Source of the DNA: a virus
Taxonomy: Duplodnaviria > Heunggongvirae > Uroviricota > Caudoviricetes
Length of the DNA stretch: 9,486 bases
IMG/VR virus record: IMGVR_UViG_3300029461_000021
Reading direction: 5' to 3' (one strand)
Position numbers and translations under genes: made by a program. Every line of letters begins with the position of its first letter. The stretch's first letter is position 1. Below the pieces are notes generated by a model. It had not been told where the DNA came from, did not search any database, and saw only the letters and a list, made by a program, of their open reading frames with translations. Below, in pieces: positions 6,803-9,486 of this stretch.

Positions 6803-7272
6803 CCGTTTAACTCCGTGGTTAATGGGTGCAACTATTTTCTGTTGTGCGAAGCATGAGACGCTATTTGACCTGGCTGGGCAGTGGATGAAACAACAGATAA
6901 AGAAAAAGTGGGCAACTTGCCCGCCTCTATTTATTGCGGTATACCCAGCCATTCAGGATTTGTTGCTACTCATAATTACCTGCAAAGAAACAAAGAAAAG
7001 ATGAAAATACAAGCTGTCTGGTACAAAGAAATCCATCAGACTTCCAACACCCCATACATGTGCCCCCACCACGGTATGCTGCTCCGCTTCCCTTTGCGGA
7101 TATTTTCTATCCATCGATTTTCAGCCAGGATATGCACGTGCGCGATGAAGAATGTCACACTACTATTGCCTTGTAAGCCCAGTTCCCGGTAAGAATAGCA
7201 ACCAGCATCTGCGCTGCTACAGCACAAAGCGAGTGTATATTTGGGGGGAATATCCTTCATAAACTGTTCGAC

Positions 7273-7300
7273 GAAACCACGCTGTGGTTTCTCTTGTTAT
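7273..7300 (+). terminator. Terminator-like hairpin with U-rich tail
   Basis: GAAACCAC-gct-GTGGTTTC (8-bp stem, 3-nt loop) followed by TCTTGTTAT. Confidence 0.3.
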
Positions 7301-7415
7301 CAAACCGAGTGGCATTATCACTAGTTTTACTAAATTACCAACTTCACTGTGAATGATATGCATGATAGAATCAGAAAATTAAATTATACAGATCTTAATC
7401 AATTCCGCGTTTTAT

Positions 7416-7441
7416 GCCCGTTGCTTCCACGGGCTTTTTTT
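7416..7441 (+). terminator. Rho-independent terminator
   Basis: GCCCGT-tgcttcc-ACGGGC followed by seven T. Confidence 0.5.
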
Positions 7442-7536
7442 AAAAAATCACCTAAAATAAATAATTATATTCACTTTTATTCTAATACAGAATAGAATAT
7501 GAAATCGTCAATTTGTACCATTAATTTTCAAATCTT

Positions 7537-7566
7537 CCCCGCCTTCGAGAGAATGCGGGGCTTTTT
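7537..7566 (+). terminator. Terminator-like hairpin with T-tract
   Basis: CCCCGC-(12-nt loop)-GCGGGG followed by CTTTTT. Confidence 0.4.
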
Positions 7567-7714
7567 ACATGAGTACAACTTCACATTAACTATTTTTATA
7601 CTTATAATTTGCTTTGCTTAAAAATGTTCAAAATGTACGCCAACATATTTAATTATGCTGATTTTATCACCAACAAAACTATCACCATGCAAACAATCCC
7701 TCGTGTTAGTTATA

Positions 7715-7730
7715 CTGCAATGCATTGCAG
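7715..7730. promoter_or_regulatory. Perfect 16-bp palindrome, candidate operator or activator site upstream of the cargo promoter
   Basis: CTGCAATGCATTGCAG is a perfect palindrome about 45-60 bp upstream of the TATAAT box. Confidence 0.3.
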
Positions 7731-7775
7731 CATGATGTGCTGATGACTTCATTAAATCATGTCACAATGTTCAGA

Positions 7776-7781
7776 TATAAT
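7776..7781 (+). promoter_or_regulatory. Candidate sigma70 -10 hexamer for the leader/glycosyltransferase transcript
   Basis: Consensus TATAAT about 64 nt upstream of the leader ATG at 7845; possible weak -35 TTAAAT at 7752-7757 with an 18-nt spacer, in an AT-rich context. Confidence 0.3.
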
Positions 7782-7844
7782 GCTTCATGTTATGAGATAG
7801 CATTCTGAATATTCATAAACATTATTAACGTTAGAGGTTGCATA

Positions 7845-8063
7845 ATGAAAACTGATATCACTGCCATGTCTGAAAATATAGTTGGATTCTTTGAGAAAAC
7901 AACACTACGTGACCACATCAAAAAAACATGGCTATACAATGAAAACTGCTTCGTTATTGACTTCGAATATAAAGGGGTGAAATTTGCATTAGATTTCACA
8001 GCCAGCCAGCCAGCCAGCCAGCCAGCCAGCCAGCCAGCCAGCCAGCCAGCCAGCCAGGTGTGA
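7845..8063 (+). CDS. 72-aa leader ORF ending in an (Ala-Ser-Gln-Pro)n repeat; probably the N-terminal segment of the phase-variable glycosyltransferase, in the OFF frame
   Basis: ATG at 7845 with SD AGAGG about 8 nt upstream; the ORF runs through the (GCCA)14 tract and stops at TGA 8061-8063, overlapping the GTG at 8060 that opens the glycosyltransferase frame. Confidence 0.55.
   Translation: MKTDITAMSENIVGFFEKTTLRDHIKKTWLYNENCFVIDFEYKGVKFALDFTASQPASQPASQPASQPASQV
7999..8057. repeat. Perfect tetranucleotide simple sequence repeat, (GCCA)x14 (equivalently CAGC, AGCC or CCAG), about 59 nt
   Basis: Read directly: 14 uninterrupted GCCA units at 8001-8056, with partial units on each side. Confidence 0.95.
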
Positions 8064-9178
8064 ATGTGGATTTTGTACTACGAAATAATTGCCCTTATTA
8101 TACTATAAAAGGCAACACTAAAAAAGAAAACATTTCATCTTCTGCTGTTTTAACAACAGCCCTGCATACTTCTCTTCTAAAAATCACAACGGTAATTAAT
8201 GAAATTAATTCTATTTATCCCTTTGATGTCTCAGTTGTTATTCCGGTTCACAACCGAGAAACCCTTATTCTCGAATGCATTAAATCTTTAAACAATCAGA
8301 CTATAGATAAAAATTGTTTTGAAGTTATTTTCATTGATGACTGTTCCACTGACAGGAGCATTGCCGCCATTGAATATAACATTTCGAGAGAAATAAATTA
8401 TCGTATTATCCGTAGAGCAGTTGGTTCAGGGAATGCATCAGCGCCGCGAAATGAGGGAATAAAATCCGCAAAAGGTCGCTATGTGTTTTTCTTAGACTCT
8501 GATGATTCCATTCACTCTGACTTACTGTCCGATGGTATTCAGATGGCTTATAAAAACAATAGTGACATTGTATATTTCAAGCAGGTTTCCTCTACAGGGA
8601 GAGGGGTTCCTGTACGCCCATTTAAGGCAGACACGAATAAAGCAGATATTATAAAAAACCATCTTTTTAGATCATTAAAAATCTTCAAGTTCTTTAAAAG
8701 AGAGTTGCTAATCAATAACAACATCTTATTTAACCCATCAATTTCAGTCTATGAGGATATGCTTTTTTCTTGCCAGAGCCTAACTGTAGCTAATACGATA
8801 TCTATACTGGCAAGAAAGGACTACTACTCTCTGAATCGCCATGAAGAACCACATCTATCTAAAACATCTTTCTCCATTAAACAAAGAGCCTTGGTATTAC
8901 AAACAGGTTTGATTTATATCTTATCAAGCAATAAAAATGAAGCAGAAATAGTAAAAATGTTTAATGCATGGCTGGTTATTTGCGTTGAGCACTTGGCATC
9001 CATATTATCCAAAAAAAGTTTAACAACTAATGAGAAGTCTCACGTTTTTAACTTGATACATAAATCACTCTTACCATATACAGGGCTTGTAAATGAGTCC
9101 CAAATATATCCCGCACAAAGAGAGCTTGTCAGTTGCTTAATCTGTGGAGATTATTCTTCTTTTTGCGAAAAAATATAA
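8060..9178 (+). CDS. Family-2 glycosyltransferase (GT-A fold, DxD motif), soluble type; as drawn it starts at a GTG and is out of frame with the upstream leader
   Basis: 372-aa ORF with the GT2 N-terminal signature VSVVIPVHNRE...EVIFIDDCSTDRS and a DxD motif (FLDSDDS); no C-terminal transmembrane segments visible. The frame has no ATG and no convincing SD before the GT domain. AT-rich codon usage unlike the tail genes. Confidence 0.8.
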   Translation: MNVDFVLRNNCPYYTIKGNTKKENISSSAVLTTALHTSLLKITTVINEINSIYPFDVSVVIPVHNRETLILECIKSLNNQTIDKNCFEVIFIDDCSTDRSIAAIEYNISREINYRIIRRAVGSGNASAPRNEGIKSAKGRYVFFLDSDDSIHSDLLSDGIQMAYKNNSDIVYFKQVSSTGRGVPVRPFKADTNKADIIKNHLFRSLKIFKFFKRELLINNNILFNPSISVYEDMLFSCQSLTVANTISILARKDYYSLNRHEEPHLSKTSFSIKQRALVLQTGLIYILSSNKNEAEIVKMFNAWLVICVEHLASILSKKSLTTNEKSHVFNLIHKSLLPYTGLVNESQIYPAQRELVSCLICGDYSSFCEKI

Positions 9179-9217
9179 AAACACTTAACTACAGATACTC
9201 CTAACTTTGTATCTGAC

Positions 9218-9256
9218 GCCCCTCACCCTAAATTAAGGGTGAGGGGCAAAAAAAAA
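9218..9256. other. GC-rich perfect hairpin followed by an A9 tract downstream of the glycosyltransferase gene (atypical terminator or island boundary element)
   Basis: GCCCCTCACCC-taaattaa-GGGTGAGGGGC (11-bp perfect stem) followed by AAAAAAAAA; the tract is A rather than U on the plus strand, so it is not a canonical intrinsic terminator in either orientation. Confidence 0.35.
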
Positions 9257-9486
9257 TAATTATTTGATGTTATATTTATATGCCATCACATCTTTTAACT
9301 CCAGTTGTTACGGGGAGGACAGTGACTCGTATCAACTAAAGTTTGATCTGTAGATAACACTATTTTAAGCAGATACTCATTAAGGCTTGTTTATTCTGAA
9401 GTCTCCAACTTGCGTATTACCGTGAAGGAGATCGGTGAGTAACATCGATGGAGATCGGTTCGTGTCACTTTCACAGAACCGTTTTT

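Follow-up and report, generated by a model that had tools for sequence, protein, structure and literature searches.

The 9,486-nucleotide viral contig IMGVR_UViG_3300029461_000021 (the window, meaning the whole stretch of DNA that was analysed) represents the right arm of a P2-like prophage that occupies the yegQ/ogrK locus in Escherichia coli. Upstream of the tail sheath gene FI it carries an AT-rich island, whose cargo gene (7845–9178, rightwards transcribed) encodes a glycosyltransferase and is interrupted in the window by a tetranucleotide tract, (AGCC)n, that varies widely in length among relatives. The island is a moron at the Z/fun hot spot, bearing a gene that is switched by repeat length and encodes a TarS-like glycosyltransferase, whose most likely role is decoration of a capsule.

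Organization of the glycosyltransferase gene

The gene starts at the ATG at 7845, with a ribosome binding site (AGAGG, 7833–7837) 8 nt before it, and in the window it is split into two open reading frames (ORFs). The upstream ORF (7845–8063) encodes 72 aa ending SQPASQPA... and then meets a stop, and the downstream ORF runs from 8060 or 8066 to 9178 (372 or 370 aa). A perfect (AGCC)14 tract (8000–8055, + strand; TRF: 14.8 copies, 100% matches, score 118) lies between the ATG and the catalytic domain and encodes (SQPA)n in the ON frame. At the window's length (n = 14; n mod 3 = 2) translation stops directly after the tract at TGA 8061–8063; frame simulation places the stop ten codons further on when n mod 3 = 1, and joins both ORFs into a single 445-aa ORF when one unit is added.

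Several observations show that 7845–9178 is one gene, which is in the OFF state in the window: it is a single coding sequence in RefSeq entries, its N-terminal residues are conserved, the full-length protein is modelled with confidence, and a similar domain occurs in Campylobacter and Psychrobacter proteins. The single RefSeq coding sequence encodes 450–540 aa in strains DETEC-P881, 4069, 21AH057, ATCC 11303, B-DolR and CUVM3; in most genomes RefSeq gives the gene as two genes. Homologues that lack the repeat conserve the N-terminal ~125 aa, the 52 before the tract among them, with the motif W-x-Y-x3-C-x-V-x-DF...KFALDF, a loop, and VNVDFVLRN, and the tract falls in the one variable loop. An AlphaFold2 model of a natural 3-unit allele (P0001) has a mean pLDDT of 93.2 and places the loop (residues 54–57, ASQP) at the tip of a β-hairpin between strands 45–53 and 58–64, within an N-terminal α/β domain. 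This accessory domain is N-terminal in the E. coli proteins and C-terminal in the Psychrobacter and Campylobacter homologues, which looks like a domain permutation within one family.

The 372-aa ORF with a GTG start was rejected as the gene, since a single conserved domain, modelled with confidence, spans the first 55 residues of this ORF together with the 52 that precede the tract. The initial annotation, made from the window's letters alone, presumably saw a cargo ORF beginning at 8060; the gene begins at 7845 and is ~215 bp longer.

Repeat number and reading frame

Tract length was determined in 25 copies of the gene, comprising 21 from complete E. coli genomes (with the window), two from other assemblies and two from viral contigs; a third viral contig ends within the tract and is outside this census. 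The copies have 3, 3, 5, 7, 7, 10, 11, 13, 14, 15, 19, 20, 21, 23, ~33, 34, 34, 35, 35, 45, 50, 59, 60, 66 and ~86 units. The ORF from ATG 7845 is full length only where the length of the tract is divisible by three, which is the case in eight of the 25 copies, or six of 23 when the 3-unit allele, which is always in frame, is left aside. Length differs even among derivatives of one laboratory strain (B, 35; B-ZidR, 35; B-RalR, 34; B-DolR, 45 and ON), and the wider B lineage includes REL606 with 7 units, AS19 with 10 and ATCC 11303 with 21 (ON), with 59 also present within B-lineage stocks. Pure tracts of up to 66 units are kept in the insertion-tolerant loop.

The remainder of the gene is intact: with the tract set to three units throughout, all 25 copies are open over 429–434 codons, and dN/dS is 0.20 against a 94%-identical 3-unit allele and 0.10 against a paralogue in a kps capsule locus (see below). 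A perfect coding repeat, a repeat number that toggles the frame among relatives and an otherwise intact gene under purifying selection together form a well-supported signature, at the level of sequence, of a contingency locus and not of a decaying pseudogene. A scan for the tract junction in one genome per species found only two chance matches outside E. coli, both in unrelated metagenome bins, and so gave no sign that the repeat-bearing allele exists beyond this species.

The same repeat has been encountered in experimental evolution. The motif in ECB_01992 of REL606 has been described as 'seven four-nucleotide repeats' and termed hypermutable, with its function given as unknown (PMC7750951; PMC12147273; PMC10195153), and a four-nucleotide indel in it reached frequencies of 19–34% in cultures derived from REL606 (REL1206), where the authors judged it 'likely not adaptive' in laboratory populations (PMC7750951). 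A literature search found nothing linking this repeat to the downstream glycosyltransferase or describing the switch.

The enzyme

The protein matches Pfam PF00535 with E = 2e-28 (99.7 bits against a gathering cut-off of 23.3). D219, S220, D221 and D222, which form a DSDD motif, are invariant in 15 homologues together with ~50 other positions. The closest solved relatives by sequence are Staphylococcus aureus TarS (phmmer E = 9e-38) and TarP (5e-31), followed by Listeria RmlT, and the same three lead a Foldseek fold search (E ~1e-25, TM-score 0.80–0.86 on the target, ~320 aligned columns). The model shows the catalytic and helical subdomain architecture of TarS, TarP and RmlT, and on this basis the cargo is confidently assigned as a GT2 glycosyltransferase of GT-A fold that is a structural relative of these enzymes. 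TarS, TarP and RmlT add sugars to poly(ribitol-phosphate) wall teichoic acid while it is still in the cytoplasm, awaiting export by an ATP-binding cassette (ABC) transporter. The island enzyme is only a structural relative of TarS and TarP, because its accessory domain differs: the C-terminal oligomerisation domain of TarS and TarP was not found, the protein ending after the helical subdomain, and no Pfam family matched the N-terminal accessory domain.

More specific assignments were not obtained. No NCBIfam equivalog came near its cut-off (PRK10073 scored 77 bits against 423), and the PHROG families annotated 'GtrB-like O-antigen conversion' gave a weak match (E = 7e-32) confined to the catalytic domain. 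The glycosyltransferase has no stretch of transmembrane strength (no Kyte-Doolittle window mean of at least 1.6), and no ORF in 6927–9390 corresponds to a GtrA or GtrC partner, so the gene does not belong to a Gtr-type (GtrABC) system and the enzyme should act at the cytoplasmic face and not by the periplasmic Gtr route. PADLOC matched neither the glycosyltransferase nor the island's small membrane protein, described below, to any model of a known defence-system protein. The initial annotation had noted that this locus often holds phage-exclusion genes in P2-like prophages; the cargo is instead a GT2 glycosyltransferase, and any phage exclusion exerted by the island would act through modification of a receptor or capsule.

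Capsule loci and the candidate acceptor

E. coli AST215, E. coli AF16 and two metagenomic contigs harbour a 64%-identical paralogue within region 2 of their group 2 kps loci. This paralogue carries the same 500-bp upstream cassette as the island gene and adjoins genes for a TagF-like CDP-glycerol glycerophosphotransferase and a bifunctional cytidylyltransferase/SDR protein, the latter read as being of the CDP-ribitol synthase type. The Campylobacter coli homologue, which represents a cluster of 551 sequences, belongs to a capsule locus that also encodes both of these enzyme types. In both AST215 (L043, 8601–8729) and AF16 (L044, 8602–8703) a scrap of a 'tail fiber assembly protein' gene, 34–42 aa in length, lies just upstream of the cassette, and its presence suggests that a phage delivered the module into kps region 2.

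A related kps region 2 of the ribitol-phosphate type, scored as present at ≥85% identity, is complete in 49 of 5,426 complete E. coli genomes, with two further partial copies. Among the 29 island carriers, 18 have this kps region, an association with a Fisher p value of 4e-31 that is uncorrected for shared ancestry. Megablast with the AF16 region 2 found two genomes, and the link with the island hosts emerged only from a sensitive search and with region 2 of DETEC-P881. The ops/JUMPStart element (GGCGGTAG) has no match in the island, and its window-wide counts are at chance level. From the genomic context, decoration of a capsule is the most likely role of the enzyme, a choice made with slightly less than even confidence, and the core of lipopolysaccharide (LPS) or an O antigen of the ABC-transporter type is the main alternative acceptor.

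Another homologue, 47% identical and with the same N-terminal domain, is present in Leclercia sp. W6 (L025, 8001–12055). There the gene is convergent with an 885-aa Peptidase_S74 tail-fibre gene, at the point where an unrelated prophage ends beside smpB/ssrA, and the locus repeats the pairing of glycosyltransferase and tail fibre found in the P2-like island.

The island at the Z/fun position

The window is 94.6% identical to phage P2 over 453–6926 (blastn), a stretch that spans D, U, T, E, FII, FI and the PF promoter region, and homology ends at 6926. The next P2 gene beyond PF is fun(Z), which in the P2 record is also opposite in strand to the F operon, so that the insert occupies the Z/fun-equivalent position, as the initial annotation had proposed. 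The same interval had been taken as an island at 6803–9300, and the AT-rich insert is real; its true extent is 6927–~9390, from the end of P2 homology to the tail-fibre stop, the position of which was mapped from REL606 and DETEC-P881. The 6803–6926 segment is core P2 DNA upstream of FI (– strand) and lies outside the island; in the matching stretch of the P2 record the PF late promoter is annotated with its activator site and its transcription start, and a terminator-like hairpin lies at 6908–6924 within this region.

Composition changes sharply at the insert. In a sliding window, G+C falls from 0.52–0.60 in the tail genes to 0.29–0.40 from ~7200 to the end, with means of 0.554 over the tail genes (499–6802) and 0.348 over 7300–9260. 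The mean is 0.362 over the whole insert, 0.447 over its left part (6927–7300) and 0.367 over 6803–9300. G+C at third codon positions (GC3) is 0.31 in the cargo ORF and 0.59–0.66 in D, T and FI.

The island was found in 29 of the 5,426 complete E. coli genomes, as compared with 1,717 that have the adjacent FI gene, and so is not a universal core gene of these prophages. Its hosts include the E. coli B lineage (REL606, B, ATCC 11303, AS19) and ~17 other isolates; BL21 derivatives have the kps locus and are not among the 29 carriers. At the same site other P2-like prophages have nothing, a tail-fibre invertase with invertible segments, or three small hypothetical genes, and P2 itself has fun(Z), which confirms that alternative cargo occupies the interval between FI and the tail fibre. 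A non-homologous insert of foreign composition that varies between relatives is what is found at the Z/fun site, and the expectation that the insert would be foreign in composition, non-essential and read in the direction opposite to the late operon is borne out.

Other features of the island and window

A single cargo gene opposite in strand to the tail operon had been reported, and the glycosyltransferase gene is indeed on the + strand; the insert holds more than this one gene, with a decayed gene for a small membrane protein on the – strand and a conserved regulatory cassette of ~500 bp. The former is a frameshifted pseudogene (7019–7260, – strand) of a ~97-aa protein (phrog_1443, E = 3e-7) that is found in moron regions of lambdoid phages. 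A tblastn search with an intact 97-aa lambdoid-phage homologue matches in three frames between 7244 and 7019. RefSeq annotates part of this pseudogene as a 74-aa hypothetical protein, and the ORF at 7036–7260 (– strand) has nothing significant in Pfam or NCBIfam. The same is true of a rightwards ORF at 6881–7192, which is probably spurious. An intact 96-aa copy is divergent from a paralogous glycosyltransferase gene in a torT-linked locus (L021), which implies an ancestral module of small membrane protein gene, regulatory region and glycosyltransferase gene.

The regulatory region (7300–7844) contains two tandem rightwards mini-units followed by two promoter-like sites. Mini-unit A (7343–7441) has a TG-extended promoter-like sequence (TTCACT–17 bp–TAGAAT, 7343–7371), a body of ~40 nt and an intrinsic terminator (7416–7434; GCCCGT...ACGGGC, then T7). 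Mini-unit B (7470–7566) is similarly organized, with TTCACT–17 bp–TAGAAT at 7470–7498, a ~40-nt body and a terminator at 7537–7560 (CCCCGC...GCGGGG, then T5). The P3 promoter-like site (7580–7608, + strand; TTCACA–17 bp–TATAAT) has 11/12 matches and is conserved in paralogous loci. P4 (7752–7781, + strand; TTAAAT–18 bp–TATAAT) is situated ~65 nt 5′ of the start codon in a block that is 74–89% identical to the window in two paralogous loci, and of the candidate promoters of the glycosyltransferase gene it is the nearest.

Across three paralogous loci, promoter and terminator blocks keep 77–92% identity, with 80–92% for those of mini-unit A, and the spacers 50–66%, and since synonymous sites between these loci are saturated (pS 0.72–0.75) the blocks are conserved above the neutral level. 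The terminator stem in one paralogous locus (L019) has a compensatory T-A to C-G change. The cassette occurs only alongside this enzyme family (31 of 5,426 genomes). An Rfam scan of 6700–9486 (E up to 1) returned only sub-threshold chance matches and none for the upstream units; mini-units A and B, with candidate transcripts of ~60 nt, are candidate small RNAs or attenuator-like leaders.

A perfect 12-bp G+C-rich hairpin (9218–9247; –27.4 kcal/mol, z = –6.9) is located between the convergent glycosyltransferase and tail-fibre genes. The initial annotation had listed a hairpin among the island's own elements, and this hairpin is real; it was rejected as a canonical intrinsic terminator, as it is followed by A9 on the + strand and the requirement for a T-run is satisfied on neither strand.

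The remainder of the window consists of P2-like genes on the minus strand, including ogr, D (499–1662) and the further tail genes U, T (2156–4603), E/E′, FII (5081–5599) and FI (5612–6802). FI starts at ATG 6802, as in P2 and RefSeq, and encodes 396 aa (MSDYHHG...); a 446-aa ORF from an upstream ATG (5612–6952) is a mechanical over-extension. To the right of the island the tail-fibre gene is reduced to its last few codons (9391–9410, – strand), the remainder having been removed beside an insertion sequence (IS). In intact relatives the tail fibre is 952 aa long, with a collar domain and a Peptidase_S74 ('chaperone of endosialidase') domain.

The final 76 bp (9411–9486) are the terminal end of ISEc12 (IS21 family) and match 100% beside istB of ISEc12 in DETEC-P881, which accounts for matches of the window in >2,000 records. 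DETEC-P881 is the nearest complete genome. In the window the ISEc12 end abuts the tail-fibre codons and the ~660-bp tail-fibre remnant of DETEC-P881 is absent, so this IS-adjacent deletion indicates that the window derives from a strain related to, but distinct from, DETEC-P881. Both this copy of the cryptic prophage and that of REL606 are eroded by IS elements and deletions.

Proposed mechanism and alternative explanations

In the mechanism that we favour, with moderate confidence, a moron cassette is inserted at the Z/fun hot spot of a P2-like prophage of the ogrK locus. Slipped-strand mispairing alters n of the (AGCC)n tract within the hairpin loop of the N-terminal domain, and only multiples of three give the full-length enzyme, a stop otherwise following 0–10 codons past the tract; comparison of sequences shows these steps. 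In the ON state the enzyme would transfer a sugar, on the cytoplasmic side, to a polymer that is assembled at that face for export through an ABC transporter, and the likeliest acceptor would be a ribitol-phosphate (teichoic-acid-like) group 2 K-antigen capsule. The outcome would be a reversible 'capsule form variation' that alters phage receptors and antigenicity, as for NeuO, the K1 capsule and prophage CUS-3.

Several observations weigh against this mechanism. The kps type that would supply the acceptor is lacking, at the ≥85% threshold, in 11 of the 29 island-bearing genomes, and 12 of the 18 genomes that have both belong to the B lineage; the prophage and the kps locus are both chromosomal and could be co-inherited, with shared descent inflating the Fisher test. 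Across the B lineage, BL21(DE3) included, the CDP-ribitol synthase gene is split by IS1 (PMC7711218), and no acceptor capsule is therefore expected there. The proportion of ON copies, about one third, is also the expectation under neutral drift of the tract. A weak AGG-N7-GTG at 8056–8068 might allow OFF cells to make some protein that lacks its N-terminal part. Long-read assembly errors may be present in some tracts that are very long or impure: that of DETEC-P881 (~86 units) is broken by short non-repeat stretches and that of HET6 has one extra C, and these impurities may be real interruptions or assembly errors.

The same switch may act on another acceptor, such as the LPS core, an O antigen of the ABC-transporter type or another glycan built in the cytoplasm, and this would be classical lysogenic conversion, in which P2-like or other LPS-binding phages are kept from adsorbing. 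We regard this as having a small but real chance. P2-type phages use the LPS core as receptor, and the weak matches to GtrB-like PHROG families and to PRK10073 point in this direction, as do the 11 hosts without the ribitol-phosphate kps type and the inability of the B lineage to make this polymer. However, the PRK10073 score is far under its cut-off, there is neither a GtrA or GtrC partner nor a membrane anchor, the closest solved relatives all act on poly(ribitol-phosphate), and paralogues and distant homologues are located in capsule loci with CDP-ribitol enzymes. Under a neutral alternative, a hypermutable microsatellite would drift in a relic gene of a defective prophage, with ON/OFF switching as a by-product.

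Neutral drift fits the erosion of the cryptic prophage in both the window and REL606, the chance proportion of ON copies, the decay of the neighbouring island gene and the judgement that the REL606 indel was likely not adaptive in laboratory populations (PMC7750951). It is nevertheless rather unlikely, a little more so than an alternative acceptor, because all 25 copies are intact save for the frame of the tract, with dN/dS of 0.1–0.2, conservation of the promoter and terminator blocks upstream exceeds the neutral level, long pure tracts are maintained in an insertion-tolerant loop, and neuO works with the same design. A gene for phage exclusion within the cell or for abortive infection, in the manner of P2 fun(Z), tin or old, would share the hot spot, opposite orientation and AT-richness of fun(Z). 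This reading is very improbable, as the protein is modelled with confidence as a GT-A glycosyltransferase and conserves a DxD-type motif, PADLOC gives no match, and no DNA similarity to P2 is detectable past 6926.

A broader and more speculative possibility, which we put forward tentatively, extends the capsule-decorating switch to a mobile 'capsule-decoration module' consisting of the membrane protein gene, the two mini-units and the TarS-like glycosyltransferase gene. Such a module might shuttle between phage tail-fibre regions and kps region 2, coupling a receptor-binding protein to a receptor-editing enzyme; the P2 lineage would have gained the tetranucleotide switch, and the (SQPA)n loop may perhaps tune activity as the NeuO repeats do.

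Relation to known systems

The closest functional analogue is neuO, which encodes the polysialic-acid O-acetyltransferase carried by prophage CUS-3 in E. coli K1 and has been termed a 'mobile contingency locus' (Deszo et al. 2005, cited in PMC13001214). NeuO modifies the kps-exported capsule and protects against K1 phage, and neuO has 3–53 repeats among genomes, is ON at multiples of 3 and is found in that state in 34% of genomes (PMC13001214). Both genes are cargo of E. coli prophages with a repeat in the 5′ part of the coding region, are ON at multiples of three and in about a third of cases, have a wide range of repeat numbers (3 to ~86 here) and translate the repeat into extra peptide; both would decorate a kps-exported capsule, as shown for NeuO and predicted here. 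They differ in that the island encodes a GT2 glycosyltransferase and not an acetyltransferase, the repeat is a tetranucleotide and not a heptanucleotide and is located in a hairpin loop of the accessory domain and not near the N-terminus, and the phage is P2-like and not P22-like; the function of NeuO is proven, whereas that of the island enzyme is predicted from sequence. The neuO gene adjoins a tail spike with an endosialidase-type chaperone, to which the Peptidase_S74 domain of the tail fibre beside the island gene may be compared.

TarS and TarP of S. aureus and RmlT of Listeria (PDB 5TZ8, 6H1J and 8BZ4) share the GT-A and helical subdomains with the island enzyme at 25–28% identity, and are soluble enzymes that act on a polyol-phosphate polymer before ABC-transporter export. 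TarP is itself prophage cargo, and alters immune recognition and phage susceptibility. The island enzyme differs from these three in its Gram-negative host and in having a different accessory domain in place of C-terminal trimerisation domains, and TarS and TarP are not known to be switched by repeats. As morons, P2 fun(Z) and tin/old share the foreign composition and the variability between related prophages, and fun(Z) also the hot spot between the tail-fibre genes and PF–FI and the orientation opposite to the late operon; there is no sequence relationship to the island gene, and these genes act by intracellular exclusion as opposed to the predicted modification of a surface glycan.

Tetranucleotide contingency loci are familiar from Haemophilus influenzae, one of them being mod, with AGCC repeats. 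The H. influenzae loci lic2A, lgtC and lex2A/lex2B have a tetranucleotide tract in the 5′ coding region of genes for surface-glycan glycosyltransferases and are turned ON and OFF by slippage (PMC2651432). Unlike the island gene, they are chromosomal, in a species with many such loci, and their tracts are usually far shorter. The gtrABC operons of Salmonella and Shigella phages glucosylate O antigen and in Salmonella are phase-variable through Dam and OxyR. They are likewise phage-borne, phase-variable determinants of glycan modification, which in their case affects phage adsorption, but use a three-component periplasmic pathway under epigenetic control and not a single soluble enzyme with a frame switch set by repeat length.

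Implications

The one-gene organization corrects the two-gene RefSeq annotation, and reading the ECB_01992 repeat as a glycosyltransferase switch explains a recurrent variant of REL606. The locus sits in a heavily sequenced lineage, that of E. coli B and the REL606 Long-Term Evolution Experiment. To our knowledge, repeat-switched genes are rare in E. coli, in which phase variation is usually ascribed to invertible elements and Dam methylation and neuO is the textbook repeat-switched exception. The island would thus add a second prophage-borne repeat switch in E. coli, of a different enzyme class from neuO, and if the proposed function is correct it would be a second, independently evolved mobile contingency locus in this species. 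Form variation of a ribitol-phosphate K antigen would then have occurred in lineages that include the ancestors of laboratory strain B, and a P2-like prophage would be connected, by a testable link, through a teichoic-acid-like K antigen to phage and immune recognition.

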